DNA from: Kiritimatiellia bacterium
GTDB lineage: Bacteria; Verrucomicrobiota; Kiritimatiellia; RFP12; UBA1067
DNA: 64,000 nt
NCBI GenBank assembly: GCA_045536845.1
Contig: JAZSOG010000027.1
Coordinates: 30,721 to 94,720 of the forward strand
Direction of reading: 5' to 3'
A program made the position numbers and the translations under genes. The stretch's first letter is position 1, and each line of letters begins with the position of its first letter. Shown piece by piece: positions 3,204 through 34,047 of this stretch. The notes under the pieces were generated by a model. The model ran no database searches and was not told the DNA's origin. It saw only the letters and a list, made by a program, of their open reading frames with translations.

Positions 3204-3245
3204 TACCCAGTCGGGTAATGGACTATCATTCATTTATGTTATAAA
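3204..3245 (+). promoter_or_regulatory. Palindrome TACCCAGTCGGGTA (3204-3217) + -35-like ATGGAC + -10 TATAAA; promoter of the 3281 operon, shared with the divergent HK/RR promoter region
   Basis: The palindrome is read directly from the sequence. The hexamers lie 16 nt apart, and the site is 36 nt upstream of the ATG at 3281. Confidence 0.55.
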
Positions 3246-3280
3246 ATTGCATCATCAAAAATTCACCAAGGATTGTACTC

Positions 3281-4408
3281 ATGAACGCCAAGAACTTTTT
3301 GATGGTTTCCACGGCCCTGCTGGGCGCTTCATTGCTCGCGGCAGACGACGCAAAATCGCGCGTGGATGCTTTCCTCTCGAAGGAGTTCGCCGAAGGTGCG
3401 TTAAAGGCCATGAGCTGCGCGTATGAGCAGCACGGTGAGACGCGCTACCAGTTCGTGGCGCAGAAGGGCTGGGAGGGGTTTGATGCAGATACGCCGCTCC
3501 ATGTCGCATCGATCACCAAGGTCTTCACGGCCACGCTTTTGATGCAGCTCTCCGAGGAAGGCAAGATATCCCTCAACGACTACGTGAAGAAATACATCCC
3601 CGAGTTCAAGGGCGAGTACGTGCCGATCATCAACCTGATGACACACACATCGGGTTGGCGCAACAAGACCGGCCATGTCGCGAAGTGCGTTGACGCGAGA
3701 CGCCATCAGGAGTTCTACGACACGATGTACCAGGACTTCGAGGTGAACGAGAAGTTCCGCTACATGTCGCAGGGCTACGACATCCTCGCTGAGATCTGCG
3801 AGAAGGTGACGGGTGTTGCGGATGTCGCTGACCTCGCGCGCGACCGCATCTTCCGCCCGCTTGGCATGGACCATTCCGCTTTCGCCGCACACCAGGGACA
3901 GTCGGGGCTTCACATCACGGCTCCAGACCTTGTGAAGTTCGGCCGCCATCTTCTCGACATCCGCCGCACGCGCAAGAACGGCATCCTCACCCCACAGGGC
4001 GTAGATACGCTCTTCCGCCGCTGCCTCAAGCAGGAGTTCAACCGCACGCCCGCTTTCTTCGCCAAGTCAGGCTACATAGGCTTCGGCCAGTATTTCGCCG
4101 ACGTCAATACCATGGATGCCGTCGGTCACGCAGGCGCGACAGGATGCTTCCTCCTCATAGACCCAGGGCTTGACGCGGTCGAGGTTGTCCTCACGAACCG
4201 CCTGAGCGAAAACGACACGCACTTCAGCTCCTGCGACGCAAACTTCTCGCGCATCTTCTCGATCATGGCGACCCACTTCGGCGACGAGCCGATCGGCAAC
4301 CGCGACGAGATGAAGGCCGGCTCCTTCGGGCTTCAGATCGACCGCGTGAAGGCTGCGGCCGAGTCTGAGCGCGTCGCCTCCAAGCAGGCCCGAGAGCTGG
4401 GGCTTTGA
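3281..4408 (+). CDS. Secreted serine hydrolase, beta-lactamase/transpeptidase-like family
   Basis: N-terminal signal peptide. SxxK active-site motif in HVASITKVFTATLLMQL. Length and layout are typical of class C beta-lactamase-related esterases. Confidence 0.8.
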   Translation: MNAKNFLMVSTALLGASLLAADDAKSRVDAFLSKEFAEGALKAMSCAYEQHGETRYQFVAQKGWEGFDADTPLHVASITKVFTATLLMQLSEEGKISLNDYVKKYIPEFKGEYVPIINLMTHTSGWRNKTGHVAKCVDARRHQEFYDTMYQDFEVNEKFRYMSQGYDILAEICEKVTGVADVADLARDRIFRPLGMDHSAFAAHQGQSGLHITAPDLVKFGRHLLDIRRTRKNGILTPQGVDTLFRRCLKQEFNRTPAFFAKSGYIGFGQYFADVNTMDAVGHAGATGCFLLIDPGLDAVEVVLTNRLSENDTHFSSCDANFSRIFSIMATHFGDEPIGNRDEMKAGSFGLQIDRVKAAAESERVASKQARELGL

Positions 4409-4460
4409 TGTGTTCGGGGAAGACCACTTGCACAGTAACAACAATAGAAGGAGAGCTTCC

Positions 4461-5966
4461 ATGAAATCATATGTCCTTTCGACCGTAACTGCGCTGTTAG
4501 TCGGCTCCGCTTGTGCCTCAGACACGACGGTGTCGACGTATTCGGCGCTCGCATCGGCTCTCGGTTCTGCAAGCGACGGCGATACCATCACGCTTAAGGG
4601 CGGCACTTACACTGCAAACGAGACTATCAATGTCTCCGCGGAAAATGTGACACTCGTTTCCGCAGGCGGAAAGGCCGACACGATAATCGACGGCGAATCA
4701 CAGTGGCGCATCCTCAATGTAAGCGGGAAGGGCTTCAAGGTCGAGGGGATCACGTTTAAGAATGCGTATTATGCGGGCAATGGCGGTGCCATCAGCTTCA
4801 GCTCCTCGAGCGTTTCGCAGACCGCGATGGTCAAGGACTGCGACTTCATCGACTGCGTCGCGAAGTACGGCGGCGCGATCTATGCCGGGCAGAACAGCTA
4901 TTCGTCATTCGAGCCGCGCGAAAACTACGGCATCATCAGCGGCTGCACCTTCCTCCGCTGCGGCATCGACTCGGGTACGTCCGACAACCAGGGCGGCGGC
5001 GGCGCGATATGCGGCGCGCTGTGGGTGGAGGACAGCGTCTTCGACGCCTGCTACTGCAAGACCCCGAATGTGCAGGAGTACCACCTGGCGATCGACGTCC
5101 CGAGCTACATGACCGTCACGAACTGCATCTTCCGCAACCACACAAACATCACGCGCGGGCTGGTCGGGTCCAAGGAACAACGGGAGCAGCTGGGCTGCGC
5201 GCGGCTTATCGACTGCCTCATCGCCAATAACACTTCGGTCGGAGCTGACGACGTCCTTTTCCACCGCAAGGTAATCCTCGACCGCTGCGTCATTTCGAAC
5301 AACTCGGCTACTGCCACTTCTACGCTCTCGTCGCTGTACAGGCTTGACTCAACAGGCGACCGGGAATTCAGCAAGGTCACGAGCTGCCTTTTCATCGACA
5401 ACAAGTACCCGTTCAACATGGCCAACCTGCCGCCGCTTTTGAACTGCACGTTTGTCCGCAATGTCGGAGGACTTGCATGTGACACTCTGCAGACTGGGCA
5501 GACGCTTAAGCTGTTTGTCACCAACTGCGTGTTCTGGGCTAACGTCGCGAAGACCGATTGGCCGCATAACGCCACATACAAGGGCGTGCCCGGTTTCTAC
5601 TGGCATCCAACCACTCAGCTTCAGGATTTTATCAAGATCGGCACCACGGTCATCGAAGGCGGCGCCGCCAACAGCGATGTCGCGTTGGTTCTCGCGACCG
5701 ACGCGTCCGGCGCGTCCACGCGCCTCACGGCGCTCGCGGCGCAGAAGGGCCCTGGATTCAAGGATGCGGCAAAAGGCGATTGGACGCTCAGGCGCTCGTC
5801 TGTCCTTGTCGATGTCGGCGTCAAGGCAGACTGGATGGATTCGGCTTGCGACATTGCAGGCAACAAGCGCTGCCTCAAGAAAGGCCTTGTAAAAGACGGC
5901 GCCATGCCAGATATTGGATGCTTCGAGTTTTGCTCCATTGCGGGGTTCAAGGTCAGTCTTCGCTGA
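4461..5966 (+). CDS. Secreted right-handed beta-helix (pectin-lyase-fold) repeat protein
   Basis: Start moved to the ATG at 4461 (SD GAAGGAGAG at 4447-4455, signal peptide MKSYVLSTVTALLVGSACA). Repeated GGAI-type turns (NGGAISF, YGGAIYA, GGGGAICGA) and a C-terminal PDIGCFEF motif, as in many beta-helix proteins. Confidence 0.6.
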   Translation: MKSYVLSTVTALLVGSACASDTTVSTYSALASALGSASDGDTITLKGGTYTANETINVSAENVTLVSAGGKADTIIDGESQWRILNVSGKGFKVEGITFKNAYYAGNGGAISFSSSSVSQTAMVKDCDFIDCVAKYGGAIYAGQNSYSSFEPRENYGIISGCTFLRCGIDSGTSDNQGGGGAICGALWVEDSVFDACYCKTPNVQEYHLAIDVPSYMTVTNCIFRNHTNITRGLVGSKEQREQLGCARLIDCLIANNTSVGADDVLFHRKVILDRCVISNNSATATSTLSSLYRLDSTGDREFSKVTSCLFIDNKYPFNMANLPPLLNCTFVRNVGGLACDTLQTGQTLKLFVTNCVFWANVAKTDWPHNATYKGVPGFYWHPTTQLQDFIKIGTTVIEGGAANSDVALVLATDASGASTRLTALAAQKGPGFKDAAKGDWTLRRSSVLVDVGVKADWMDSACDIAGNKRCLKKGLVKDGAMPDIGCFEFCSIAGFKVSLR

Positions 5967-5987
5967 TTTCGTCAAAGGAGCTTTGCC

Positions 5988-6646
5988 ATGAAAATGCCTT
6001 TCTCCATTGCCTTTGCTGCCATCGTGGCTTTCTTCGCCTCATCCGCGCCTGCCGCGACAGACGTCACCTGGACTGGCACGCCGCTTACCGCGAGCAGCAC
6101 GTCGATCCGCACCGACGGCACGCTCAAGTACGCCTACGCGCGTGGAGATTATACAGCCAACGGCGTTGCGTTTGTCGGCGTAGGAAACAAAATAATCAAT
6201 AATGCGGACTGCATCGCATGGGAAGCATCTTCTGGTGCAAGAGAAGGCCAGTCAAATCCGCCGGAAGACACTGAAGATGGCGGCTATAAGAATTTGCTAT
6301 TGTATGGCTGGTGGGCTAACACGAACCCGAACCCCAAGCCACGGAAGATTCAGCTGAACAATCTTGAGGATGGAAAGAGATATCTTGTCCAGATAATCCC
6401 TACCGCAATATAACGGAAACATTAAGCGCAGCTGTAACCGCACCGGACGGCGGAACAACTGTAAAATTTGTAGGCGATGGCTGGACGTATGGCAGTTCCT
6501 TGTCCGCCGAGTTCACGGCTGAGACTGCAACTGAGGAGTTCACACTTTCATATAGCAACCACTGTGCCATCAACGCCATCCAGGTGCGGGAGCTGCCGGC
6601 GGATGGGCCAGTGTCTTCGCGTGGGTTCTATTTTATCTGCAAGTAA
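5988..6646 (+). pseudogene. Single-module lectin-like secreted protein, interrupted by a frameshift near 6396-6400
   Basis: ORF 5988..6413 (signal peptide, IRTDGTLKYAYA, YLVQII) ends at a TAA. The rest of the same module (GDGWTYGSSLSAEF...INAIQVRELP...GFYFICK*) continues in the -1 frame to 6646. The join lies in the run atccc. Confidence 0.6.
6069..6595 (+). repeat. Lectin-like module copy P (in the frameshifted gene)
   Basis: W..SIRTDGTLKYAYA..NGVAF..RYLVQII / frameshift / GDGWTYGSS..INAIQVREL. Confidence 0.7.
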
Positions 6647-6706: not shown

Positions 6707-6749
6707 TACCCAGTAGGGTAGTTGTCGCACAAGGGAAAGAATTTATAAA
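6707..6749 (+). promoter_or_regulatory. Palindrome TACCCAGTAGGGTA + TTGTCG (-35) + TATAAA (-10), upstream of gene A
   Basis: Read directly. 16-nt spacer. Followed by the conserved SD context GAAAGGTGTATCC before the ATG at 6781. Confidence 0.55.
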
Positions 6750-6780
6750 ATAGAGGCACACTCAGAAAGGTGTATCCGTA

Positions 6781-9700
6781 ATGAAAACAAAAATCCTAAA
6801 ATCGTTTGCAGCTTCTATCATCGCGGCCATGTCGCTTTGCGCATTCGGCATTGAAATCGGCAGCCAGGTCCCTGGCTCTGACCATTCTTCGGCTCCCTGC
6901 ACGCCGAAGGAGCGCACGGACGACTACCACAGGAACCACTTCAGCGCCGACATCAGCGGCAGCCAGGGCAAGGAGTTCGACATCGTCCTGTTCGGCGACT
7001 CGATCACCGACTTCTGGAACAGCAACCCGAACCTGAGCCTCGACAACAATCCCACCGACACGAAGACGTTCAACATGGGCATCGGCAGCGACCGCGTCCA
7101 GAACCTCCTGTGGCGTCTTCGGAACGGTGCGCTTGACGGCTATACCACGAAGTACTTCACGTTGATGGTCGGCATCAACAACGGCCACCAGAAGTGCATC
7201 GACCACAACGAGCATGCCGATCGCGCAGAGGATGTCGCCGAGTCGATCCGTCTCATGCTGTGCGAGATGGCGACGAAGCATCCGGACGCGAAGATCCTCC
7301 TGATGCCTATTCTCCCCTACAGCTTCGACAGCAAGTACTTCGAAGCGGCCGAAGTGACGGCCATGAGCGAAGCGGTCAACGACTACATCCTCCAGTTCGT
7401 CGACAACAAGCGCGTGTTCTGGGTGGACCTCCGCAGCCAGTACCTCCAGCAGAATTCGATGCCCAACAAGGTCTGCTACCGCGAGGGCGGCCACGGCGGC
7501 TACGACGCCGTGGGACTCTGCCTCCATCCGGAATTCTTCACCTATTCGGATTTCTGGAAGCCTGCGCTGACCAACGCGATGCACAAGTATCTCTCGGTTC
7601 CCGTCGGCCAGGCGCACGTGGCGGATCCCTCGCTCGGCTACGCCAAGGCCGCTCCGAACGCGGACGGCGCGGGCTCCGCGACGATCACGGTCTTCGGCAT
7701 CAACCTCGGAACGGACGCGAACGCGAACGCCGTGACGTCCTACGCGATTGACTACGAGCTCGACGGCGGCGCGAAGACGCGTGCGATTTCCAACCAGACG
7801 GGCGTTAGCAAGTCGTTCGTGATCCCGAATGTCGCCCTCGGCGACCATACCTGCAAGGTGACCGTCACGACGGCGGACAACAAGGAGCTCGTCACGCTTC
7901 TCGACTTCACGATGACCGAGCCGTGGTACGCAAGCCCGCTGCCGACCGACGACAGCGCCATCCGCACGGACGGCACGCTCAAGTATGCGTATGCGCCCTC
8001 GGCCTGCACGGTCAATGGCGTTACGTTCGCGGCTGCCGGCAACAACAACGCCGCCATCTCGGGCGACATCTCCTGGCCGTACAGCCAGACCTCCGGCGCG
8101 TCGGCGCCGAGCAGCATCTCCGGCGCCTACTATGAACTCCTGAACCGCTGCTGGTGGGCGAACCAGGGCGACAAGGAGGTGACGCTCAAGAACCTCACGC
8201 CCGGACACAACTACCTCGTCCAGATATTCGGCTACCGCAACTACAACAGCGACAGCAAGGCGCATGTCTGGATCAAGGAGTCGTACTGGGATCCGAATTT
8301 CATCAAGGTCTATGGCGACGGCTGGTCCTGCGGCGGTGTTCTTACAGGCGCCCTCACGGCAACGGCGGAAACCAAGACATTCACCATCAAGTCCGACGGC
8401 AATTACGGAATCAACGCCATCCAGGTGCGCGACCTCGGCGAGAGCGGCGTGCCGATCGTCGTCCAGCCGAAGGTCGGCTCGGTCACCGCCACGACGAACG
8501 AAACGGCGGCGACGATTTTTCTCTCGGGCATCGTGCTGGGGACGGACGATGCCGGTGAGAGCGCAAATTCCTATTCCGTCTCCTACTCGCTCAACAACGC
8601 GGCGTCCGTGGCTGCGCTTTCGGGCCAGACCGGTGCGTCCGCGCAGTTCACGATCTCCGGTCTCGCGGACGGCGAATACACCTGCGCGGTGACGATCACG
8701 ACAGACAAGAACAAGACCTCCGCGGCGAAGTCCGTCTCCTTCCGGATCGGCACACCGCCGCCCGAGGTGGTCGCGGCATCGATCGGCTCTGTGTCCGCGG
8801 TGACAAGCGGCAGCACTGCGACGATTTCGCTTTCAAGCGTCGTCATGGGAACGGACGACGCGGGCGTTGCGGCGTCCTCGTATTCCGTCGCCTATTCGCT
8901 GAACAGCGGATCAGCCGTGACGGCGCTCTCGAACCAGACCGGCGCCTCGGCTTCGTTCCAGATTGCGGATCTTGCCGACGGCAGCTACACGTGCGCCGTC
9001 ACGATCACGACCGACAAAGGCAAGGTCGCGTCGAAGTCGGTCAGCTTCACGATCAACACTTCCCTGCCGCCGGTACCGGTCGGGAGCTGGACCTCCGGCC
9101 CGATGTCCGCGGACGGCAGCACGATCCGCACGGATGGAGACCTTCTCTATGCCTATGCGGCGCAGAACGGAACGGTGGGCGGCGTTTCTTTTGTGCGTGA
9201 CGCCCCCCTTGGCTCGGGGGGGATGGTTTCCGCCTCGCCCGTGCCAGCCATGGGTGGAGGATCCTGGGGTACTGAAGGAGTGTCGGGTGACTTCGGAACC
9301 ATGCTCCAAAATGGCTGGAACTGGACGGGCGACGGCAACGAGCTCTCGTACACGCTCACGCTCAATGGGCTAACTGCAGGCAAGACTTATCTCGTTCAGC
9401 TCATTGCGCACAGGCAGTCGAACAGCATGCTTGTCTCGGCAAACGGTTCGCCTACGGCGCATGTCCACGGTAGCGACGAGTCAAACTGCAAATACGGCGC
9501 ATCCATCGTCGGCGTTTTCGTGGCCTCGGGCGCCTCGGCGACCGTCACCGTCACCTATACGAACCAGACGGGAGACCGTCCCCTTAACGCCATCCAGGTG
9601 CGCGAGCTCGGCGAAGGTGGCGGCGGCGGTGGCGAAGATCCTATCGATCCTGTCGACCCGACGACGCCTGTCTGCATGCTGACGATTCCAGAGAAGACGG

Positions 9701-10713: not shown

Positions 10714-10752
10714 GCTCGGTTGCTCTAATATAACTCCGCAGGCATTCAAGGC

Positions 10753-12633
10753 ATGGCAATGAAGATTATGAAGAAAACATTGCCATGCCTTGCTGTTGCA
10801 ATTGTCGCGTTTAAGTGCGTGGCGGCAAACCTTGACGGCATGACGGCCTGGAGCCGTTCTTCCGTGGAAAGTCTTTTCGCCATGTGGTGCGACGCGCTTC
10901 TTGCGCGGCAGATCTCGGGTACTGGCGACAAGATGATTGACGGCGGGATTGCGTGTCCCGCGTGCGGCGTCATGCATGGCCGCGTATGTGACCTCGTCTA
11001 TCCGCTTGTCTATCGTTGGGCCACCACTGGAAACGAGCGGTACCTTGTGGCTGCGGAGAAGGCCGTCGAATGGTCAGAAGCAACGATGCTCAGGGAGGAC
11101 GGCGGTGTCTACAACGACTACCAGACCTTGTGGTGGGGCACTACCGTGTTTGCTCAAATCGCCCTTGGCAAGACGCTCCTTTATTACGGAGATCGGCTGC
11201 CGCGAGACTTGCACAGCCGCTGGAGCACGATTTTCAAGCGCGAGACCGATTTTGTAGTTGAACGGTTCGACGACAAGTTCGTGAATACCACCAACGTGAA
11301 CTACCCTGCGGCGTTTTGCGAGGCAATGGCTCTTGCCGGGGTGGTGCTGAAAGACGACGACAAAACCGCGCGTGCAAGGGCGATGGCCGAGAAGCTGATG
11401 GCGCAATTCCTGCCGGACGGTCTTCTCACAGGCGAAGGAGCGCCGATGAGCAAGCGCTCTCCGCGCGGGTATGCGTATGTCGATCTTGGCTACAATCTCG
11501 AAGAGACGCTGCCGACGCTTTTCGCATACGCAGAGATTTGCGGTGACGCGAAGATGAAGGATGCCGTTCTCGCTTCGGCTATCGCGCACGCCGAGTTCAT
11601 TCTTCCTGATGGTGGCATGGATAACTCTTTCGGAAGCAGGAGCCCGAAGTGGACATACTACGGCAGCCGCACGTCAGACGGCATGCTGCCGATCCTTGGC
11701 GCTCTTGCAAAAGTAGGCGTGCCATGGGCTGCCAAGGCGATGGAGCTTCATCTTGATCTCTACAGGCGATGCACGAACTCGGCTGGCCTTTTGGCGGGCG
11801 GGGTGCAGTACGAGGCGGCCGACGAGCCGGCGTGCGTGCATCATTCGTTCGCACATATAAAATCCATTGTCGACATTCTTCGCAATGGCTCTATTCCCGA
11901 GAAGGTCGCTGACGCACGTCTGCCGCGCGAAAATTGCTATGGCCTAAAGTCCTTCCCTTCAATAGGCGTGGAACTCGCCGCGGTAGGTCCTTGGCGCGCC
12001 ACTTTTGCCGGTGGCGACTCCTTCGTGCAGGGCATGGTAGGGCATCGTGTTTCTGGTGGTGGGCCTTCCTTGCTGTGGCATGAGGCCGTCGGGCCATTGA
12101 TTGTCGGCACGATGGCGGACTACAGCATTATTGAAGCAAGGAATCTTCAGGACCTTCGCCACGAACGGACGGTTCTTTCGATGATGCCGCGCATAGAGGC
12201 GGGCGATATGTCCAGTTCTGCGCGCGACGTAGATGTCGAAATGAAGGCGACATGCGTCTCGAACGTAGTCGCGTGCAGCGCGCGCGGACAGCTTACGGGA
12301 AAGCGAGGGAACCGCGGTGCGGCTTACGAGCTTGTTTCGCGCGTTGATGAAAAAGAGTTTTCGCTTGGCGGCAAATGCGACGTAGACGCGCGTTTCATAC
12401 TCCCCGTCGTCGCCCTCAATACCGACCGCGTCGAAATTGGAAATGGGCGCGTCAGAATCGAGAAGGGCAGCTCTGTTGTCACGATTGAATCCGAATTGCC
12501 GTTTGAACTTGCAAGAACAGATCGCGGTAACCGCGCTTTTTCGCCGATAGGAGGTTTCCTCTATGCTTATTTGACGGCGCCTATATGCGCAGAAGATGCG
12601 TTTAACGTGCGTATTTCCGTCAGTTCCAAGTAA
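10753..12633 (+). CDS. Secreted hypothetical protein (possibly alpha/alpha-toroid-like); function unassigned
   Basis: 626-aa ORF with an N-terminal signal peptide (KKTLPCLAVAIVAFKCVAA), 40 nt after gene A. Amino-acid composition looks like a real protein, unlike its Arg-rich antisense ORFs. No family motif that I can name. Confidence 0.6.
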   Translation: MAMKIMKKTLPCLAVAIVAFKCVAANLDGMTAWSRSSVESLFAMWCDALLARQISGTGDKMIDGGIACPACGVMHGRVCDLVYPLVYRWATTGNERYLVAAEKAVEWSEATMLREDGGVYNDYQTLWWGTTVFAQIALGKTLLYYGDRLPRDLHSRWSTIFKRETDFVVERFDDKFVNTTNVNYPAAFCEAMALAGVVLKDDDKTARARAMAEKLMAQFLPDGLLTGEGAPMSKRSPRGYAYVDLGYNLEETLPTLFAYAEICGDAKMKDAVLASAIAHAEFILPDGGMDNSFGSRSPKWTYYGSRTSDGMLPILGALAKVGVPWAAKAMELHLDLYRRCTNSAGLLAGGVQYEAADEPACVHHSFAHIKSIVDILRNGSIPEKVADARLPRENCYGLKSFPSIGVELAAVGPWRATFAGGDSFVQGMVGHRVSGGGPSLLWHEAVGPLIVGTMADYSIIEARNLQDLRHERTVLSMMPRIEAGDMSSSARDVDVEMKATCVSNVVACSARGQLTGKRGNRGAAYELVSRVDEKEFSLGGKCDVDARFILPVVALNTDRVEIGNGRVRIEKGSSVVTIESELPFELARTDRGNRAFSPIGGFLYAYLTAPICAEDAFNVRISVSSK

Positions 12634-14752: not shown

Positions 14753-14771
14753 AGGTCTGCCAGCTTTTGAT

Positions 14772-25713: not shown

Positions 25714-28700
25714 ATGACAAAAACATTTAAATTCCTTGTAGCCGTTTCCCTCGCATTTGCCGCGTCAAATCTTTTCGCGACGGTAGAGTTCGTGAAGAAG
25801 ACGTTTGTCGCGTCAAACAAGCTGCAGCTTCCCTACCGCGCCGCGGAGAAGGCCGACCCGAACGGTGGCAAGGTGCCTGTCGTCGTCTTTCTTCACGGAT
25901 ACGGTCAGTGTGGCGTCGACAACTCGTTTACAATCAACGAGATGACGAACATCAAGAGTTATCTCGACAGCACGGGCAGTGACGGCTACAAGCTTCTCGT
26001 TCCGCAGTGCCCTAACGATGTCAAGTGGGCGGAGTTCGCAATGAGCTCTACCACCTGCACGTTCCAGGAAAAGCCGTCTTCGGCGCTCGTTGCGGTTTTC
26101 GATCTTCTCGACTCCTACGCCGCGATGGCGGACGTTGACGCCAACCGCATCTACGTCACAGGGCTTTCGATGGGCGGACACGGCACGTGGGACGCGATCT
26201 GCCGCCGTCCCGACTTCTTCGCCGCGGCGATGCCGTGCTGCGGTGGCGGCGATCCTGTCCGCGCTGCCGATATCGCGCACGTCCCTGTTCTGGCTGTCCA
26301 CAACCGCGGCGATCCGACCATTCCCGTCGAGCAGACCGAGGGCATCGTCACTGCGCTCAGGGCGCTCGGGTCGGACGTGATCTTCGAGAAGCTCGAGAAC
26401 AACAGCCACGACGCCTGGACGACATGCTATTCCAGGACGGACGATGTCACGGCGGGCGCGCCGAACCACCGGTTCGTCTGGCTGTTCGCGCAGAACCGCG
26501 CGACGAACAACCGCCCGAGGTATCCGCGTATCACGGAGCTCACCGCGGCGCCGAGCGGTTCGAACGCGACGATCTCGCTCACGGGCGTGGTCTTGGGCAC
26601 GGACGCCGATTCGGTTCCCGCGACCAAGTATTCCGTCACCTACAAGCTCGATGGTGCGGCAAACGCCGTGACGGCGCTTTCTAACCAGACAGCGGATAGC
26701 TCCTTCACGCTTGAAGGCCTTGAGGACGGCAACCACACCTGCGAGGTGACGATTACCACGGACAAGGGGCGGACGAAGACGAAGTCGGTCGTCTTCTACG
26801 TCAACACGTCCGCCGTCTCTGACGTCTGGACCTCGGCCGCGATGGACGCGTCCGGCAGTTCCTTCCGTACCGATGGCACGCTTCTCTATGCCTATTCCAG
26901 CCACGGCGGAACGGTCAACGGAATCAAATTCGTGCGAGACGTAAATCTTCAGGGTAGTTCCTTGGAGATCGCCTTTGCGCCAAACATCGACAGCTTCACC
27001 AGCGAACTTATGAACGAAGAAGTCAGCGGCGACTTTGGAGTCATGCTTAGCAACGGCTGGTACTGGAACAAGGACGACTCAAGCATGCGCACGTTCAAGT
27101 TGACGCTTTCTGGCCTTACGGGCGGGAAAAGCTATCTCGTCCAGTTCCTCTCGCACAACTACTGGAACAACAATATGACCGTCTCGGCGAACGGATGCAG
27201 TCCTGTGCATATCCATGGGGAGAACGAGGCGAGCGGGAAGTACGGCGCGCTTATTACCGGGACCTTCACGGCCATGGGGGACACGAAGGAAGTTACGATT
27301 ACGTTCTCCAACGTCGACAGCAAAATCCCTCTCAACGCCCTCCAGGTTCGCAAACTTCCCGACGGCGGTTCGGGCGGCGGAGATGGGCCTGGTCCTGTAG
27401 ACCCTGAACCCACGCCCGTGTGCGCGCTCACGATTCCCGCTAAGACAGGGCTTGCGCTTCAGTCGGTGACGACGAACGGCGTCGCGGTGTCAGCCGTCGG
27501 CGGGAGCTACACGATCGTCTCGAACACGCAGGTCACCGTCAATTTCGCCGCGGCCGATGGCTATGAAATCGTGAGCGGCAACCCGGTCGTGTTCACTATT
27601 ACGGGCAACAAGACGTTCGCCGCCGCCGACTACCCCGTCGTGCAGGCGACGAGCGGCGGTGGCGGCGACGAGCCAGGCCCTGTGCTCGATGCGGGCTGGA
27701 CTGCAACGGCGCTTGGCTCGACGAGCGCTTCAATTAGGACAGACGGCACGCTAGTCTACGCTTATGCTTACGGTGCCTACACTGTCAACGGCGTCACGTT
27801 CATTAGCGGGGGGACAGCCGGCATCGACAACGCCAATTGCACCGTGAACATCACGCACAACGCAAGTACGACGCCACCCGCTGACACCGAATCGGGTGAC
27901 TACAAAAATCTGCTGGGTGCAGGTTGGTACGGGTACGAAGGCGTCCGAACGGTCACTTTGAGAAATCTCACGGTCGGCAAGAAGTATCTCGTCCAGATCA
28001 TCGCGTCTCGGAGCGATTTCGCGACGCAGTTTGCGAAGGCTCCAGACAGCGTGACGACAATCAAGTTCGGCGGTACAGGCTGGGAATACGGCGGTTCGCT
28101 TACCGGGGTGTTCACAGCCGAAGGAGCGACTCAGGAGTTCACGATTACCTACACGGGAAACTCCTGGATCAACGGGATACAGGTTCGCGAGATCGGCGAG
28201 AGTGGCGGCGAACCAGGCCCAGTCGATCCCGAGCCCACGCCAACTTGCTCTCTGACAATCCCCGCGAAGACGGGGATTGTTCTTCAGTCGGTGACGACGA
28301 ACGGAGTCGCAGTCGCGGCGGTCGCGGGCAGCTACACGATTGTCTCGAATACGCAGGTAACTGTTAATTTTGCCGCAGCCGATGGCTACGAGATCGTGAG
28401 CGGCAACCCGGTCGTCTTCACACTCTCGGGCGACAAGACGTTCTCCGCCGCCGACTATCCGATCGTGCAGCAGACAAGCGGCGGTGGTGGTGGCGACGAG
28501 CCAGGCCCAGTGCCGCAAGTCGGTTGGACCGTCGGCCCAATGAGCTCAGATGGCAGCACGATCCGCACGGACGGAACGCTCCTTTATGCGTATAGTTCTC
28601 CCGGCGGAACCGTGGGCGGCGTTCCGTTCGCCCGTGCTGTCAGCCTCGGCGCCGCAAGCATGGTCTCCGCCTCGCCCGCCTCCGCGGGGAACAGCGGGGG

Positions 28701-30564
28701 AGGTTTCGGCGACGGCGGGGCGACGGGCGACTTCGGCAACATGCTTCGGGACGGCTGGTATTGGACGGGAGAGGAAGTGCCGCTTTCGTTCACGCTCACG
28801 CTCTCGGGGCTGACGGCCGGCCACTCCTATCTCGTCCAGCTCGTTTCGCATCGGACGTCCAACAGCACGACCGTTTCGGCGAATGGCTCGACGCCCGTGT
28901 ACGTCCACGGAACCCACGACGGCGTGGACTACACCTATGGCGCCACCCTCGTCGGCATCTTCACGGCCACGGGCGCGACGGCGGACATCACCGTCACCTA
29001 TCCGACCGGTACGGGCAACCGGCCCCTCAACGCCATCCAGGTGCGCGACCTCGGCGAGAGTTCGGGTGGCGGAGGGTCGGGTGGTGGCGAGACGGTCGAG
29101 CCGATTGTCCCCGGACCGGACACCACCAACACGCTGCATCTCGCAAAGATTGCAGAATATGCTTTTGCTTCGAATGGATGCGGTGCGATCACGTATTCGG
29201 GACAAGGCGGGGTCTTCTACGTCCTTCAGGACCACGACGACGACAACTACGCGAGGATTCATCCCCTCGCGCTCGGAATCGATCCTTCCACAGGCGCGAT
29301 TCTGTCGCAAACTCTTGGTACGGCATTTACGCCTGCAGGTCTTCGCGACGCCGAGGGGCTTGCGCTCGATCCGCTCTCTGGCACATTGTGGGCGAGCTCC
29401 GAATGGACGCCGCCGACTATTTCCGAGTTCAGTCTCGATGGCGCCGCGACAGGCTGCACGGCGCCGGTTCCGTCGATTCAGCGCGACAAGCTCCGTTCCA
29501 ACCTCTCGCTCGAGTCGCTGACGATCTCCCCCGATGGACTCACGATGTGGACCGCGAACGAACAGGCGCTCACGTGCGACGGCGAGTCCTCGAGCGGCAA
29601 CACGAATGTTGCCACCGTTGTTCGCCTCACGCGCTTTACGCGCGAGACGGCGCAGGACAACTGGCAGGCCGCCGGAGAGTGGGCGTATGCATGCGATCCG
29701 TGTGCTAATGCTACATTCGCAGAGTGCGGACTATCGGGGCTCTGTGCGTTGCCGGATGGTTCGCTTTTGGCACTCGAGCGCGAAGTCAGTATTACCACCT
29801 GGGGGCGGTGCCGCATTTATCGCATAACGACCGGTGCACTTGCGGCGGCAACAGAGGTTTCCAATCTTTCCTCGGTGACCAACGCCACGGTTTCCCTGGT
29901 CGCGAAGGGTAGTCCTCTCGTGTCTTTCACTGGCACGGACTTGAACAACATCATAGTGTACGAGGGTATAGCGCTTGGTCCGAAGCTGGGCGATGGCTCG
30001 CGTTCCCTCGTCCTTGTTTCGGACGGCGGTGCCACGATGACGAAGACCTACGGGCTCCTCTCTGTTACTGCAAAGACCGTCAGCCGCATCTGCGCGTTGA
30101 AGCTTACGGGGCTTGCGGACGACGGAGAGCCGGCATTGATTCAGGACTGGCCCGCGAATCCCGACGTTGCGATCACGGATGAAACGCGTCCTTCTGATCT
30201 AGGCATAGTTGCCGGGGCCTTTGCGTCGTCCGGCACCACGACTGCGGAGCTTCGCAAGCTTTCTCGCTGGGCGAGCGCGCACAATGTGCCCTACGCGGGA
30301 GTGGATGTGAACTCCATGACTTTTCACGCTAATGGAAACCCCGGCACTCTGCATGCAACGGCGTACTTGCTCAACTGCGCCGTCGCAGAAGTCGAGGAGA
30401 GTTCGGCTGCGTTCAAGTTCACCGCTATTACGCCTGGAATGGTTCCGACCATCGAAGGCAATTTCAACGGACGCGTGACGGTGTACGGCGCAGATGAACT
30501 TGCCGGACCTTGGCAGATCGCCACCGAGCAGCATCACTTCTTCAAGGCGACGCTGACGCGCTGA
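25714..30564 (+). CDS. Giant exoprotein C: alpha/beta-hydrolase esterase + Ig-like domain + 3 lectin-like modules + 2 TIPAKTG beta-domains + phytase-like (esterase-like) beta-propeller
   Basis: Start moved to the ATG at 25714 (signal peptide MTKTFKFLVAVSLAFAASNLFA). Nucleophile elbow GLSMGGHG. Modules as in A and B. C-terminal region with AEGLALDP...LSLESLTISPDGLTMWTANEQAL, typical of the phytase-like family. Confidence 0.85.
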   Translation: MTKTFKFLVAVSLAFAASNLFATVEFVKKTFVASNKLQLPYRAAEKADPNGGKVPVVVFLHGYGQCGVDNSFTINEMTNIKSYLDSTGSDGYKLLVPQCPNDVKWAEFAMSSTTCTFQEKPSSALVAVFDLLDSYAAMADVDANRIYVTGLSMGGHGTWDAICRRPDFFAAAMPCCGGGDPVRAADIAHVPVLAVHNRGDPTIPVEQTEGIVTALRALGSDVIFEKLENNSHDAWTTCYSRTDDVTAGAPNHRFVWLFAQNRATNNRPRYPRITELTAAPSGSNATISLTGVVLGTDADSVPATKYSVTYKLDGAANAVTALSNQTADSSFTLEGLEDGNHTCEVTITTDKGRTKTKSVVFYVNTSAVSDVWTSAAMDASGSSFRTDGTLLYAYSSHGGTVNGIKFVRDVNLQGSSLEIAFAPNIDSFTSELMNEEVSGDFGVMLSNGWYWNKDDSSMRTFKLTLSGLTGGKSYLVQFLSHNYWNNNMTVSANGCSPVHIHGENEASGKYGALITGTFTAMGDTKEVTITFSNVDSKIPLNALQVRKLPDGGSGGGDGPGPVDPEPTPVCALTIPAKTGLALQSVTTNGVAVSAVGGSYTIVSNTQVTVNFAAADGYEIVSGNPVVFTITGNKTFAAADYPVVQATSGGGGDEPGPVLDAGWTATALGSTSASIRTDGTLVYAYAYGAYTVNGVTFISGGTAGIDNANCTVNITHNASTTPPADTESGDYKNLLGAGWYGYEGVRTVTLRNLTVGKKYLVQIIASRSDFATQFAKAPDSVTTIKFGGTGWEYGGSLTGVFTAEGATQEFTITYTGNSWINGIQVREIGESGGEPGPVDPEPTPTCSLTIPAKTGIVLQSVTTNGVAVAAVAGSYTIVSNTQVTVNFAAADGYEIVSGNPVVFTLSGDKTFSAADYPIVQQTSGGGGGDEPGPVPQVGWTVGPMSSDGSTIRTDGTLLYAYSSPGGTVGGVPFARAVSLGAASMVSASPASAGNSGGGFGDGGATGDFGNMLRDGWYWTGEEVPLSFTLTLSGLTAGHSYLVQLVSHRTSNSTTVSANGSTPVYVHGTHDGVDYTYGATLVGIFTATGATADITVTYPTGTGNRPLNAIQVRDLGESSGGGGSGGGETVEPIVPGPDTTNTLHLAKIAEYAFASNGCGAITYSGQGGVFYVLQDHDDDNYARIHPLALGIDPSTGAILSQTLGTAFTPAGLRDAEGLALDPLSGTLWASSEWTPPTISEFSLDGAATGCTAPVPSIQRDKLRSNLSLESLTISPDGLTMWTANEQALTCDGESSSGNTNVATVVRLTRFTRETAQDNWQAAGEWAYACDPCANATFAECGLSGLCALPDGSLLALEREVSITTWGRCRIYRITTGALAAATEVSNLSSVTNATVSLVAKGSPLVSFTGTDLNNIIVYEGIALGPKLGDGSRSLVLVSDGGATMTKTYGLLSVTAKTVSRICALKLTGLADDGEPALIQDWPANPDVAITDETRPSDLGIVAGAFASSGTTTAELRKLSRWASAHNVPYAGVDVNSMTFHANGNPGTLHATAYLLNCAVAEVEESSAAFKFTAITPGMVPTIEGNFNGRVTVYGADELAGPWQIATEQHHFFKATLTR
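26827..27357 (+). repeat. Lectin-like module copy C1
   Basis: WTSAAMDASGSSFRTDGTLLYAYS..NGIKF..GDFGVML..SYLVQFLSH..PLNALQVRKL. Confidence 0.8.
27697..28197 (+). repeat. Lectin-like module copy C2
   Basis: WTATALGSTSASIRTDGTLVYAYA..NGVTF..KYLVQIIAS..GTGWEYGGSL..WINGIQVREIG (closest to copy P). Confidence 0.8.
28525..29055 (+). repeat. Lectin-like module copy C3
   Basis: WTVGPMSSDGSTIRTDGTLLYAYS..GGVPF..GDFGNML..SYLVQLVSH..PLNAIQVRDLG. Confidence 0.8.
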
Positions 30565-30613: not shown

Positions 30614-30659
30614 TACTCATATGGGTAGTTGTTGGAATAAGGGTGGATTGTGCTATAAT
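30614..30659 (+). promoter_or_regulatory. Palindrome variant TACTCATATGGGTA + TTGGAA (-35) + TGCTATAAT (extended -10); the -10 is 6 nt from the ATG at 30666
   Basis: Read directly. 16-nt spacer. Confidence 0.55.
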
Positions 30660-30665: not shown

Positions 30666-33600
30666 ATGAAAACTCTAATAGCCATTGCAGTGTCGTTGAC
30701 CTCCGTTCTCGCCGCTAACGCCGCGGGCTATGACTACGAGGTCGAGTACGTCAAATCCACGCACGGCAGCTGCGTGAAGACGGATCTCATCCCCGAGCCG
30801 GGACTTACGTTCAAGATGGACCTCATGTTCGAAGGTCCTTTCAACCAGATTTTCGGCGGCAAGTTCGACATGGCGAGAAACACAACCGCCTTTTTCGGCC
30901 AGGAAGACGAAAAGGATGCCGATGGCTTCCGCGACCTCTTCAGTCTCGAGCTCGGCGGTCACGAGGCCCAGGCCTACCAGGCGTTTGCAAACCTCGGGCG
31001 CAAGAGCCGGGACAAGTGGATACACTGCGGCATCCAGGAGGTCAACGACTCGGTGATCGGCACGCACATTCCAATTACCTATGACGGGAAGAGCCTCGCC
31101 ATGGGCAGCTTCCGCAGGAAACTCAATGACGCGCGTACTGCAACCGGCAAGGTCCCTGTGTCCTTCTTCGGCATGACGTGCGCCGATGGCTCGGTCAAGT
31201 CATATGCGTGTTACGACATGACCTTCTATGGTGCGACATTCTACAAGGACGGAAAGCCCGTCGCCGAATACATCCCTACAGTGAAGGGCGGCGTTGCCGG
31301 AATCTACGACAACGTCGGCAAGAAGTTCTATGCAAGCGCGACGTCCGTTCCGCTCGCGGCCGGCCCGAAGGCGGCGAAGAAGTCCGCGAAGAAGACGACG
31401 GACGGAAAGCCCGCAAAAATTGACTTCTCGGTGCCGGTATTCGAGGACGACTTCACCAACCCTAAGGTCTTCGCTGAGCGCTGGGACTTCCGCGGTCACG
31501 CGCAGAAAGACATCGAGGTGAAGGACGGCGCGGTGCGTGTCCCGAGCGGCAACACGGGCGACGGCATTCAGTGGAAGGGCGAGCTTCCCGAAGAGTGCGC
31601 GGTCGAGGCGGACTTAGTGTGCTATCCCGCCTGGAGCAAGATCAAGGATCCCAAGGACGGCGACTATCACTGGGCCTGCATGGGCTGCGAGTATGCCAAC
31701 TACGGCGTCCGCAGCGACGGCTACGGCGTCAGTCTCTATGCGCCTGTGGAAGGCCAGGCGACACGCAGCTGCTATCCATGGATCGCCAATTTCAAGGAGC
31801 AGGAGCCGGTCACGGTTCGCTTCGAGCGCCGCAAGATAGGCGATAAGATGATGGGCTACACCTTCCTCATAAACGGCGTCCAGGCGAACTACTTCACTGC
31901 CCCCACGCCCAAGAAGACCGTCGGTTTCGACGGCGTCGCTCGGTCGAATCCGCTTGTCATCGACAACTTCCAGTGCCCGTTCGAGGTGCGCCGCGTGACG
32001 ATATACGCGCTCAAGGGCGACGACAGCGCGAACCTTATCGCCAACTCCGGCTTCGAATACGACAACGATGGCGTGCCGCTCCACTACTGCAACCGCAACA
32101 GCTGCGCTATGGACAAGGTTACGGTCGAGGACTACAAGGAGAAGTACCTCAAGTGCTTCATGGTGGACAAGAAGGAGAAGCACTCCGGGAAGCAGTCTCT
32201 CCGCCTCAACATCGGGCCGTTTGTCCGCAGCTTCGACTTCTTCACCTGGAATACCCCCACCCAGAAGGGCAGGAGCGCGGTCTTCTCCATCTGGGCCAAG
32301 GCGTCCGAACCTGGCGTAAAGTTCAAGCTGAAGCTCTCCAAGGACGTAAAGCTTGTCGATCTTACGACAGACTGGAAGCGATATGAAATCACGACGACCA
32401 ACATGCCTTCGCCCGGGTTGTTCAGCCCCGTGTGGCTCGAGGTACCGGAGACTTGGAAGCGGACGGCCGAGGCCTCGATTTGGCTCGATGACCTCCAGCT
32501 CGAGATGGTCGACATGCCGAACGGCGGCTTCGACCCGAATAAGAGCTACGCGACGGAATACAAGCCGAAGTCCGGTGACGAGGCGAATTTCGCGCTCGGC
32601 AAGCCCACGCCCCACGCGAAGCCCGAGCGCAAGACGCCCCTCACTGCGGCGGAGAACGCGCTGTGCGGCTACAAGGTTCCGGCAGAGGGTCTAATTCTCG
32701 GGCACTACGACTACTACATGAACGAGAAGACGGCGGGTTTCCGCGTGTGGGACGCGAATGGCGGCTTCGAGGAAGTGTCGCTCGACATCTCGGCGATGCC
32801 CTGTGGCAACAACACCGTTACGGTCAAGGCGCTCGGAAAGAAGTGGAAGGCCGAAGTCCGCAAGCTTCCGTTCAAGAAGGGCGCGGTGCAGGTCAACCAG
32901 TGGTCGCGTACGCTAGTCCACGATGGCGAGAAGGTGTTCATGAGCTCGCCTTGCCTCATCGGACGCGAAAACGCCCCGCTTGACGACGGAACTTCTAAGC
33001 AGGTCGACATACTCGTCGATGCAGGCTTCAAGTACCTGAACCTCCAGAACAACCTGTGCGTCCGCGACATCGAGATGAACCAGAAGACGCTCGCGTATGC
33101 TGCCAAGAAGGGCATGAAGTTCACGATCTGGACCGGCGAAGGGAATACGCTCAACGACGTCGGCGAAATCAGGCGCTGGGAGGACAACTCGGTGACGGAC
33201 TGGTCCAGGGAAAAGATGTACAAGATGCTCGACAGCGAGAATGTCATCAACTGGCTGGTATTGGACGAGCCGGAGTATCGCAAGGCCGACGATTGCAAGG
33301 CGTTCATGCAGCGCACCAAGAAACTCTTCCCCTACAACCCCGTGCAGATGAACAACTGCTGGATGGGCATCTCCGGGCGCTTCGCCGGTCTCCCAACCGA
33401 CATCCTGATGGTCGACTACTACCTCACCTGCGACGGTACGACGCTCGAAATGGTCGTCTCGAAGGTTGACGTGCTTCGCTCCATCGCGCCCGGCAAGCCG
33501 TGCTGGTACTTCATGGAGAGCGAGAACTCCCTCCATCCGAGGATTCCCTCGTACAAGGAGCAGATCGCCCAGTGCTGGGGCTCGATCGCTGCGGGTTCGT

Positions 33601-34001
33601 CCGGGCTTTCATGGTTCGTCAACATGCCGACTTCGCGCTGCTGCTACGACGCGCTTGTCGACGTCAACCGCGAGATACTCGACAACGTCGACTTCCTCTG
33701 CTCCGACGAGCTTTGCGGCGGCGCGATTGCGAGCGAGACGGAGAACTACATCCGCTGCCTCACCCGCAAACACGGCGACGAATGGCGCATCTACACCGCG
33801 AACGTCAACCCTCACCCGAACGAGAAGGTTTGCTTCGTCCTTCCGCCCGAGATACCTGCAAATGCCAAGGTCGAGGTCATGTACGAGAACCGCATGCTCC
33901 AGGGCAAGGTCGGAACGCTCGGCCCCGACAAGGCGAAGGTCAACTACTTCCTCGATTCCTACGAGGGTTTCGCGCGTCATATCTACCGCATTGTAAAGTA
34001 A
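30666..34001 (+). CDS. Large secreted multidomain protein with LamG/CBM4_9-like sugar-binding regions and a probable hydrolase barrel
   Basis: Start moved to the ATG at 30666 (signal peptide MKTLIAIAVSLTSVLAANA). ANLIANSGFEYD...GKQSLRLN...IWLDDLQLE resembles CBM4/9-type modules. Family of the C-terminal half not assigned. Confidence 0.65.
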   Translation: MKTLIAIAVSLTSVLAANAAGYDYEVEYVKSTHGSCVKTDLIPEPGLTFKMDLMFEGPFNQIFGGKFDMARNTTAFFGQEDEKDADGFRDLFSLELGGHEAQAYQAFANLGRKSRDKWIHCGIQEVNDSVIGTHIPITYDGKSLAMGSFRRKLNDARTATGKVPVSFFGMTCADGSVKSYACYDMTFYGATFYKDGKPVAEYIPTVKGGVAGIYDNVGKKFYASATSVPLAAGPKAAKKSAKKTTDGKPAKIDFSVPVFEDDFTNPKVFAERWDFRGHAQKDIEVKDGAVRVPSGNTGDGIQWKGELPEECAVEADLVCYPAWSKIKDPKDGDYHWACMGCEYANYGVRSDGYGVSLYAPVEGQATRSCYPWIANFKEQEPVTVRFERRKIGDKMMGYTFLINGVQANYFTAPTPKKTVGFDGVARSNPLVIDNFQCPFEVRRVTIYALKGDDSANLIANSGFEYDNDGVPLHYCNRNSCAMDKVTVEDYKEKYLKCFMVDKKEKHSGKQSLRLNIGPFVRSFDFFTWNTPTQKGRSAVFSIWAKASEPGVKFKLKLSKDVKLVDLTTDWKRYEITTTNMPSPGLFSPVWLEVPETWKRTAEASIWLDDLQLEMVDMPNGGFDPNKSYATEYKPKSGDEANFALGKPTPHAKPERKTPLTAAENALCGYKVPAEGLILGHYDYYMNEKTAGFRVWDANGGFEEVSLDISAMPCGNNTVTVKALGKKWKAEVRKLPFKKGAVQVNQWSRTLVHDGEKVFMSSPCLIGRENAPLDDGTSKQVDILVDAGFKYLNLQNNLCVRDIEMNQKTLAYAAKKGMKFTIWTGEGNTLNDVGEIRRWEDNSVTDWSREKMYKMLDSENVINWLVLDEPEYRKADDCKAFMQRTKKLFPYNPVQMNNCWMGISGRFAGLPTDILMVDYYLTCDGTTLEMVVSKVDVLRSIAPGKPCWYFMESENSLHPRIPSYKEQIAQCWGSIAAGSSGLSWFVNMPTSRCCYDALVDVNREILDNVDFLCSDELCGGAIASETENYIRCLTRKHGDEWRIYTANVNPHPNEKVCFVLPPEIPANAKVEVMYENRMLQGKVGTLGPDKAKVNYFLDSYEGFARHIYRIVK

Positions 34002-34047
34002 CCCAGAAAGGATGGGTATTGCGGAACTAAGGCAAAAATAGTATGCT
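34001..34047 (+). promoter_or_regulatory. Degenerate variant ACCCAG-N6-TGGGTA + TTGCGG (-35) + TATGCT (-10), upstream of the DUF1080 operon
   Basis: Half-sites are conserved but the spacer is 6 nt rather than 2. 17-nt spacer between -35 and -10. Confidence 0.4.

Follow-up and report, generated by a model that had tools for sequence, protein, structure and literature searches.

The nearest described systems with which the locus treated here can be compared are, for the most part, transcription factors that carry a helix-turn-helix (HTH) domain of the GerE/LuxR type. LuxR and TraR use this domain for a class II-type activation from a palindromic box that abuts the -35 element; their boxes are 18-20 bp long, and the proteins are controlled by an N-terminal autoinducer-binding domain and not by phosphorylation. 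The RcsB box and other operators of the NarL/FixJ family are 14-bp inverted repeats bound by a dimer of GerE-type HTH domains, and RcsB often acts with auxiliary partners. The kinases VraS and LiaS are intramembrane-sensing and have no large extracytoplasmic domain. In Escherichia coli NarL, Lys188, Val189 and Lys192 of helix alpha-9 make base contacts according to a cryo-EM study, which also cites TraR as a structural relative of NarL and the RcsB/DNA complex as structurally conserved (PMC10853779). The NarL site has a 7-2-7 layout and is centered at -43.5 at the yeaR promoter, where it is the 16-bp TAACCAATAAATGGTA, and at -44.5 (plus -77.5) at ogt; activation is of a non-canonical class II kind, with contacts to the C-terminal domain of the RNA polymerase alpha subunit (alpha-CTD) and none to sigma region 4 (PMC10853779). 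Here, we describe a stretch of 64,000 nucleotides (the window) from a Kiritimatiellia bacterium (contig JAZSOG010000027.1), in which a 14-bp palindrome stands before the promoters of a series of genes for secreted proteins, next to an operon that encodes a histidine kinase and a NarL/FixJ-type response regulator.

We propose, with a rough probability of 0.7, that this palindrome is the operator of the neighboring kinase/regulator pair and that the regulator activates transcription from it. Taken separately, the assignment of the operator would be highly probable and activation, as opposed to repression, only slightly less so. The sites, their non-random placement, their fixed distance from the promoters and the way in which they are kept together with the kinase-regulator pair in different species are observations; from them we infer that the window regulator binds the palindrome and that it acts there as an activator.

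A search of the window with TACCCANNTGGGTA, allowing at most one mismatch, gave exactly six matches, which start at positions 3204, 6707, 12640, 17959, 25639 and 30614; 0.02 would be expected by chance, and none of 100 shuffled sequences had six or more. A first-pass annotation of this DNA had listed these six palindromes, and the motif search returned all of them with the positions and letters given there. A relaxed search (TACYCANNTGRGTA, at most two mismatches) added a single poor match, within a gene at 59615. The hexamers TACCCA and TGGGTA are rare in the window, with seven copies each, mostly contributed by the palindrome sites. The consensus of the full sites is TAC(C/T)CA-N2-TGGGTA, around a core of TACYC-N4-GRGTA, that is, 14 bp in a 6-2-6 arrangement.

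Operator 1 (TACCCAGTCGGGTA, 3204..3217) lies between the divergent kinase operon and unit 1, the first of the plus-strand units; read on the opposite strand it is TACCCGACTGGGTA, and it is present in strains and sister species (L001-L010). Operator 2 (TACCCAGTAGGGTA, 6707..6720) is kept in L001-L006, and operator 3 (TACCCAGATGGGTA, 12640..12653) begins 6 nt past the stop codon of the preceding gene. Operator 4 (17959..17972) is the perfect palindrome TACCCAGCTGGGTA, and operator 5 (25639..25652) is its duplicate. Since the promoter, the hairpin in the 5' untranslated region (UTR) and the signal peptide are also nearly identical at the two places, this duplication is recent, and therefore operators 4 and 5 count as one independent event. 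Operator 6 (TACTCATATGGGTA, 30614..30627) is kept in L087 and L160 with TA or TG at its center.

The placement of these sites is not random. When mapped on a curated set of open reading frames, all six full sites are intergenic, and six of the seven plus-strand gaps of at least 80 nt between 3.2 and 35 kb hold a full palindrome. The five large gaps from 42 to 64 kb hold none, nor do the gaps of 1-39 nt that precede the internal genes of the units, which agrees with the earlier remark that a list of such internal genes lacks the motif.

The annotation had also counted a degenerate palindrome at 34001-34018 as a seventh site, and this one is doubtful. Its left arm, ACCCAG, is ACATGG, ACCTAG or ACATAG in three other strains while GGATGGGTATTGCGG is kept, so that no more than the half-site next to the promoter, TGGGTA, may remain; it is followed by TTGCGG-17-TATGCT (34013..34047, plus strand), a promoter that was not called in a sigma-70 consensus scan. 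The strain comparison comes from a metagenome scan with the 3-keto-disaccharide hydrolase encoded beyond this site, which returned 75 loci; only L087, L091 and L160 are informative here, most of the loci are from unrelated contexts, and the set served as a negative control of 642 kb. Thus, the statement that such sites front seven plus-strand units between 3.2 and 34 kb stands for the six units with full sites and falls back to a half-site for the seventh.

The promoters were called in the window by an independent sigma-70 consensus scan, with matches counted out of 12 positions. A sigma-70-like promoter begins 1-5 nt past each of the six palindromes, which bears out the -35-like and -10 hexamers that the annotation had noticed directly after each site. 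The calls on the plus strand are TGGACT-17-TAAAAT, or an overlapping ATGGAC/TATAAA register, for unit 1 (3219..3247); TTGTCG-18-TAAAAT, or a GTTGTC-17-TATAAA register, for unit 2 (6722..6751); TTGAGC-17-TATAAT with a TG preceding the -10 and 10 of 12 matches for unit 3 (12655..12683); TTGAGC-17-TACAAT for both unit 4 (17974..18002) and unit 5 (25654..25682); and TTGGAA-16-TATAAT for unit 6 (30632..30659). These target promoters combine a weak TTGnnn -35, which starts 1-3 nt past the palindrome, with a good -10. On the minus strand, the scan together with the geometry assigns TTGACA-17-CATAAT (3166..3194, 11 of 12 matches) to the kinase-regulator operon.

The distance from the edge of the palindrome to the -10 hexamer is 22-26 nt, and it is 24 nt in seven of the 12 promoters of the window species. 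If the -10 hexamer is set at -12 to -7 relative to the predicted transcription start site (TSS), a gap of 24-25 nt puts the palindrome at -50/-51 to -37/-38, with its center at about -43.5/-44.5. The sites are thus centered about 43-45 bp upstream of the predicted TSSs and abut the -35, so that the class II-like geometry (about -43) proposed earlier holds, and the position is the one that NarL occupies at yeaR and ogt (PMC10853779). At the kinase operon promoter of the window, the palindrome is centered at about -51.5. Two transcripts of the window are probably leaderless, judging from their promoters: unit 6 reads TATAAT-agggcc-ATG, with 6 nt between the -10 and the start codon at 30666, and the same 6 nt separate the -10 of the kinase operon from the ATG at 3159 on the minus strand.

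The regulator (758..1390, minus strand) has 210 residues and consists, by Pfam and structure matches, of a receiver (PF00072, 5e-27, residues 10-122) and a GerE/LuxR-type HTH (PF00196, 9e-15), as in the NarL/FixJ family. The acidic pocket with the phospho-acceptor Asp of a receiver is present, as the DD pair of LLADDH and the D of VVVMDLMMP line up with NarL, and the whole protein, HTH included, aligns with the structures of VraR, NarL, DesR and DevR. The closest solved structures are those of VraR/LiaR (1e-42, full length), and NarL follows at 6e-28. Identity to NarL is 32% by BLASTP, with K180, A181, H182 and K184 aligned with NarL K188, V189, H190 and K192; of the two NarL residues that contact the alpha-CTD, K174 corresponds to R and R178 to E.

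The gene of the 590-residue sensor kinase (1387..3159, minus strand; PF07730, HisKA_3, and PF02518, HATPase_c) overlaps that of the regulator by 4 nt, so that a HisKA_3 kinase and its cognate regulator share one operon. The kinase begins with a signal or transmembrane segment, which is followed by an extracytoplasmic domain of about 320 residues, one transmembrane helix, HisKA_3 and HATPase_c. Residues 1-380 have no Pfam match, no HAMP or nitrate P-box domain was detected in the kinase, and the Reg_prop and Y_Y_Y domains have no match in the pair. An AlphaFold2 model of residues 1-338 (predicted local distance difference test score 85, predicted template-modeling score 0.81) contains three small beta-barrel domains, for which Foldseek returned RPA70, HIN, Teb1 and the N-terminal OB domains of AspRS/AsnRS. 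The sensor (residues ~12-335) is therefore predicted, from the model, to be three tandem OB-folds. With the full-length model, Foldseek returned kinase cores only, matching DesK and VraS. A profile of the sensor domain finds 3224 clusters at 50% identity, 1658 of them at E <= 1e-10, and nearly all are proteins of 580-710 residues with the same kinase architecture; many members of this sensor family have an additional N-terminal segment of about 100 residues. An OB-fold sensor of a histidine kinase was found neither among the solved structures nor in the literature searched.

The motif is not confined to one side of the operon. In the six strain-level contigs of the window species (L001-L006), it also occurs past the other end of the two-component operon, in DNA that the window does not contain, where it precedes a gene for a 935-residue protein, a gene for a Pel9A-like beta-helix protein and an operon for a sugar transporter and a PfkB kinase. 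The geometry there is identical (palindrome, rTTGnnn, 17 nt, -10). At least three such promoters (3-4) are found in the strains, so the regulon as first outlined was too small, and the species has no fewer than nine independent promoters with the motif, spread over about 60 kb. The strains agree in the arms of the palindromes and differ only in the two central bases (TA/CA, CT/CA), a pattern that fits a 6-2-6 protein-binding site.

The comparison across species used 80 loci from GTDB species representatives, which were fetched with an alignment of diverse kinase homologues. In 15 of the species representatives, with kinases that share 38-98% identity with that of the window, TACCC-N4-GGGTA stands 40-110 nt before the kinase start, so that a search for the motif at orthologous loci, which had been put forward as a check, came out positive. 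Ten of these loci were aligned on the site; the arms of five bases do not vary at all (2.0 bits per column), and the 50-60 nt on each side are at 0.41 bits, which is background. This is a clean phylogenetic footprint tied to the kinase-regulator operon, and one reason why we assign the operator to this pair is that the motif stays with the orthologous operon while the flanks are not conserved. Seven of the loci (L027, L043, L044, L046, L053, L056 and L071) come from assembly CAVJWR01, which GTDB labels 'Limosilactobacillus gorillae'; with at least seven Kiritimatiellae-type kinase loci, this is evidently a mislabeled or contaminated bin.

The family is rich in paralogues, and among the 80 loci kept, a metagenome-assembled genome contributes at least 3-7 copies. 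The paralogous pairs have different 14-bp palindromes, also of the 6-2-6 type, at the same position upstream of the kinase: CCCTCAyATGAGGG, TAACCAnnyGGTTA, CCCCCATGyGGGGG, TATACnnnnGTATA, CCCACTTTAGTGGG, TGTCCTnnAGGACA, CCCACCCAGGTGGG, TAGTCAGATGACTA and CCCCAAAATTGGGG. Several of them recur in their own locus only (three copies each in L062 and L032, four in L050). Between -150 and +60 of the predicted kinase starts, there are 20 perfect 6-2-6 palindromes where 6.3 would be expected, a 3.2-fold enrichment. In the class with TATAC half-sites, two tandem palindromes, 22 nt apart from start to start, lie between the divergent promoters in L050 (9547-9582) and L055 (9533-9568), one of them 24 nt from the -10 on the exoprotein side and the other 46 nt from the kinase -10. 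Pfam searches with ten target genes beside the paralogous systems gave GH106-like, ConA-like and PATR matches, and the other genes had no match.

The half-sites go together with the recognition helix. Helix DC[VI]KAH occurs with TACCC, LE[TS][IV]K[DS]H with CCCTCA, KAGVKFH with TAACCA, DMVKEH with CCCAC, EI[ST]IKK[QH] with (T/C)ATAC, PESVKTQ with CCCCCA and KTRIKQH with TGTCCT. At the position of NarL V189, the residue is A with TACCC, E with CCCAC, K with TATAC, F with TAACC and D or S with CCCTCA. The same palindrome is shared by 27 of 83 pairs of loci with the same helix vs. 69 of 2193 pairs with different helices (odds ratio 14.8); only pairs with non-alignable upstream regions were used, and the P value of 1e-18 is nominal, as the pairs are not independent. 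Statements at the level of the family rest on the clearer palindrome classes and on this pairwise test.

These results bear on the idea that a different, unlinked transcription factor binds the palindrome and that its proximity to the two-component operon is a coincidence. Palindromes of 14 bp are indeed used by many regulator families, and L064 has two perfect TACCCACTTGGGTA sites (2621-2634 and 3915-3928), one of them with promoter geometry, at 6-7 kb from a paralogous kinase whose regulator has another recognition helix. The L064 sites suggest that targets of the TACCC type can be located away from their own two-component system. However, the motif adjoins the orthologous operon in 15 species despite fully diverged flanks, the palindromes of the paralogous pairs differ and follow the recognition helix, and the half-site fits the heptamer of NarL, whose base-contacting residues are conserved in the regulator. 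In addition, no other recognizable DNA-binding protein is encoded in the island, even when its flank in other strains is included. We therefore regard an unlinked factor as quite improbable. The earlier proposal, in which the cluster is controlled by the regulator at 758-1390 through binding to the palindrome, gains support from the footprint, the paralogue palindromes, their tracking of the helix and the NarL contact residues, all of which point to such binding.

The family also supplies evidence on how the site would work. Of 33 cases on the side of the target genes, 25 have the -10 at a distance of 24-25 nt from the palindrome. The promoters that face the kinase have it at 24-27, 35-36 or 43-46 nt, which are steps of one helical turn. 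At many loci, a single palindrome stands halfway between two promoters that point away from each other. Most promoters on the kinase side have an extended -10 (TGnTAnAAT), and usually they have no -35. A start codon follows 5-9 nt past the -10 at many family promoters, for example upstream of the kinase genes in L016 (8894-8911), L019, L026, L030, L043, L051, L062, L078 and L080. This observation suggests that many mRNAs of the family are leaderless, and therefore the -10 assignments have independent support.

The same regulator could instead be a repressor that sits at -50 to -37 and blocks the -35 region or alpha-CTD contacts until a signal removes it. The site does abut the -35 element, the core promoters match 9-10 of the 12 consensus positions and might fire unaided, and proteins of the NarL family, NarL included, repress some promoters (PMC10853779). 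However, more than 25 promoters of the family have the -10 at a spacing that varies by no more than 1-2 nt, and the alternatives are shifted by about 10 and 20 nt. A steric block at -54 or -64 would be ineffective, and dependence on the face of the helix is what would be expected of an activator. Moreover, many kinase-side promoters lack a -35 and rely on the extended -10 plus the palindrome, and the position is identical to that of the activating NarL sites. Repression is, in our judgment, unlikely. We favor activation because helical phasing would be needed by an activator and not by a steric repressor.

A third explanation is that the palindrome is not a regulator-binding site at all and is, for example, an element like the repetitive extragenic palindromes (REP) or the miniature inverted-repeat transposable elements, a hairpin or terminator that works as RNA, or a site at which recombination rearranges gene cassettes. 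As RNA, the palindrome could fold into a hairpin of 6 bp (about -7 kcal/mol), one copy received a terminator-like score on the minus strand, and the gene content between the copies varies among strains. However, no full site lies within a gene or away from a promoter, and the sites keep a fixed distance from the -10. On the plus strand the hairpin has no U-run behind it, and its z score is only -2.2. The AT-rich palindromes of some paralogues (TATAC-N4-GTATA) would form negligible hairpins, and the flanks are not conserved, unlike those of a mobile element. Scattered copies inside genes or at 3' ends had been named as the finding that would speak for a REP-like element; in the window and the 642 kb of unrelated rumen loci, all of the full copies are at promoters, and the core pattern occurs only twice in the latter, both times at orthologues of the 30614 promoter. 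We consider this whole group of explanations extremely improbable. The hairpin/terminator and REP-like versions were rejected on the promoter-only placement, the weak hairpin without a U-run and the unconserved flanks.

Several points weigh against an activator that works through this operator. The automated palindrome calls were noisy or empty at many paralogue loci, and when one top-ranking palindrome was picked for each locus, many of them yielded none or a GC-rich one due to chance. L016 and L019 keep the TACCC motif with S in place of K at the position of NarL K192, and therefore the logic that connects residues to bases is not simple. There are only one or two sites within 10 kb of the more distant orthologues, and the size of the regulon rests on about 64 kb plus flanks of this genome. 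Target promoters as near to consensus as those described above may not require an activator, and the -51.5 of the kinase-operon palindrome is neither -43.5 nor a full helical turn away from it. For this last reason, and because the operon has a near-consensus promoter of its own, autoregulation in the window species is uncertain, and it is the weakest part of what was first proposed. In its favor, many relatives have kinase promoters at an activating distance.

The mechanism that we have in mind would run as follows. The extracytoplasmic domain of the kinase, with its three predicted OB-folds, would sense a signal, which is probably a fragment of the glycan degraded by the island, a guess that is based on the content of the regulon. 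The kinase would then phosphorylate the regulator, which would dimerize on the 14-bp palindrome with one HTH per TACCC half-site. From about -43.5/-44.5, the dimer would recruit RNA polymerase in the NarL-like, non-canonical class II manner, and the nine or more separate sigma-70-type promoters of the ~60-kb island would be switched on. The products would be secreted esterases, lyase-like beta-helix proteins and glycosidases, plus the sugar transporter/PfkB kinase operon.

The plus-strand genes behind the operators encode secreted proteins, as judged by Pfam and signal peptides. Unit 1 (3281..6413, plus strand, as are all of the units) has genes for a serine hydrolase of the beta-lactamase family, a beta-helix protein and a secreted protein of 141 residues, with gaps of 1 and 21 nt between them. 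Unit 2 (6781..12633) encodes a 1310-residue GDSL esterase with Ig/Fn3 repeats and a 626-residue ulvan-lyase-like protein; ulvan-lyase families were recorded for its orthologue in L005. Unit 3 (12719..17942) encodes a 677-residue protein, with a weak, sub-threshold Pfam match to the PATR repeat, and a secreted protein of 1056 residues. Unit 4 (18034..25629) is a single gene for a giant secreted GDSL-CotH-LTD protein, and unit 5 (25714..30564) encodes a secreted protein with dienelactone-hydrolase-like and phytase-like domains. The product of unit 6 (30666..34001) is a secreted protein of 1111 residues without a Pfam match. Unit 7 (34096..42237) encodes a 3-keto-disaccharide hydrolase, an NPCBM/GH27 alpha-galactosidase, a metallophosphoesterase and a nucleoside-hydrolase-like/GH106 rhamnosidase protein, and whether it is part of the regulon is uncertain.

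Terminator-like hairpins with T-runs lie at 6677-6706 and 30554-30584 and end just before operators 2 and 6. Before the remaining units, 6-60 nt separate the upstream stop codon from the palindrome; since there is no terminator in between, transcriptional read-through between these units is likely, to judge from their layout. The two duplicated units share a 5'UTR hairpin, GGCAGAAAATCAAACAGAGATTTCTGCC (18003-18033 and 25683-25713), which ends right before the AUG and folds with -12.2 kcal/mol (z = -4.7). It could affect translation or mRNA stability; an Rfam search of the window found no RNA family, for this hairpin or elsewhere. Large secreted targets in other loci (L012, L024, L035, L050, L062 and L078) end in a short hydrophobic motif followed by R, such as GLMIIIR, GLQFILR, GLAIVIR or GAVIFVR, and the window proteins of 12719-14752 and 4410-5966 end in ATVIVLR and FKVSLR, respectively. 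The motif looks like a sorting or anchoring tag.

The strains differ in what they carry behind these promoters. Between the beta-lactamase-like gene and the giant GDSL-CotH gene (4410-25629 in the window), the gene content of L001-L006 is different; in L001 and L003, a beta-helix or small gene is followed directly by a gene for a protein of about 2500 residues, where the window carries another four genes. Which GDSL gene lies behind the 6707-type promoter differs from strain to strain. Past 42 kb, the content shifts to a GmrSD/HNH nuclease, a fucose isomerase, a fucosidase, an AraC-type regulator and a Ser/Thr kinase. The minus-strand genes right after the island (43772-49105), i.e., the one for the GmrSD-N/HNH nuclease and then genes for proteins of 180, 242 and 984 residues without Pfam matches, may be a defense island.

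The exact protein sequence of the window regulator is found on many rumen and gut metagenome contigs, and the source names of the kinase homologues include 'Kiritimatiellia bacterium'. By the GTDB locus scan, the window belongs with uncultured Kiritimatiellae of the rumen (RUG12612 at 98%), so that its source is a rumen or gut member of this group. Exact-sequence look-ups of the window proteins encoded at 30666-34001, 34096-35253 and 35266-37323 gave no match.

The Kiritimatiellae are abundant and mostly uncultured glycan degraders of the rumen, gut and marine sediments. HisKA_3 (PF07730/PF02518) kinases and PF00072 regulators have been noted near glycoside hydrolase/sulfatase clusters in Pontiella (PMC10880615). 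The literature that we searched contains no description of an operator, a regulon or the regulation of enzyme genes in this group, and as far as it shows, ours is the first explicit prediction of an operator and a regulon for the Kiritimatiellae. The predicted regulon is concrete, with a defined operator, predicted TSSs, a named regulator and at least nine target promoters in about 60 kb, and the sequence of a metagenome-assembled genome would be enough to predict sets of co-regulated enzymes and hence their substrates. As a mechanism, activation from -43.5 by a two-component regulator is conventional. The more interesting lead is the wider family, with its predicted OB-fold sensors and a palindrome for each paralogue. 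The variation of palindromes and recognition helices is a natural data set on the DNA specificity of LuxR/NarL-type HTH domains, and the paralogous pairs are a possible source of orthogonal regulator-promoter pairs. We would give even odds to a larger proposal, namely that the window system belongs to a very large Kiritimatiellae family of kinases and regulators with sensors of three or four tandem OB-folds, the phylum's counterpart of the regulators of polysaccharide utilization loci (PULs) in Bacteroides, in which each paralogue has its own 14-bp palindrome, read by a few residues of the recognition helix, and a single dimer site drives two back-to-back and often leaderless promoters, that of the kinase operon and that of an exoprotein gene. 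If this is true, nature would supply a set of at least ten regulator-operator pairs that are insulated from one another and whose recognition code can be read.

How, then, does the window system compare with those named at the beginning? Like the NarL system as known at yeaR and ogt, it has a NarL/FixJ-type regulator with a HisKA_3 kinase and an inverted repeat, here a predicted binding site, that lies just upstream of the -35 and whose half-sites start with TACYYM; the base-contacting K188, V189 and K192 of NarL are K, A and K in the window regulator. The NarL heptamer consensus is TACYYMT, which was quoted in the first-pass annotation and is stated in none of the papers retrieved. TACCCA and TACTCA both fit its first six bases, and the seventh is not conserved. 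The annotation was right that the half-site agrees and that the spacing does not: the sites in the window and in the 15 species are TACYCA-N2-TGRGTA, so that the operator is 14 bp long (6-2-6, with a 5-4-5 core) as opposed to 16 bp (7-2-7), and its half-sites are 2 bp closer together. In addition, the sensor is a predicted set of three OB-folds and not a NarX-type nitrate sensor with a HAMP domain, and the targets are secreted hydrolases, whereas those of NarL are respiratory genes. Therefore, the window pair is not an orthologue of NarX/NarL.

The other comparisons are similarly mixed. With LuxR and TraR, the window system shares the GerE/LuxR HTH and a palindrome that abuts the -35; it differs in that its regulator is a response regulator with a receiver domain and its site has 14 bp. 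VraR/LiaR are the closest solved structures to the regulator by sequence (E = 1e-42), but the window kinase has a sensor of about 320 residues and the regulon encodes exoenzymes. The RcsB box is likewise a 14-bp inverted repeat, with a different half-site sequence. The best functional analogue is found in the hybrid two-component systems of Bacteroides PULs, which are also a greatly expanded family of sensor-regulators beside glycan-degradation loci, and presumably each member of the Kiritimatiellae family controls the glycan-degradation locus next to it. However, the Bacteroides proteins unite kinase, receiver and an AraC-type HTH in one polypeptide with a periplasmic sensor of another kind, whereas the window system has separate genes for the kinase and the regulator, a LuxR-type HTH and a predicted OB-fold sensor.

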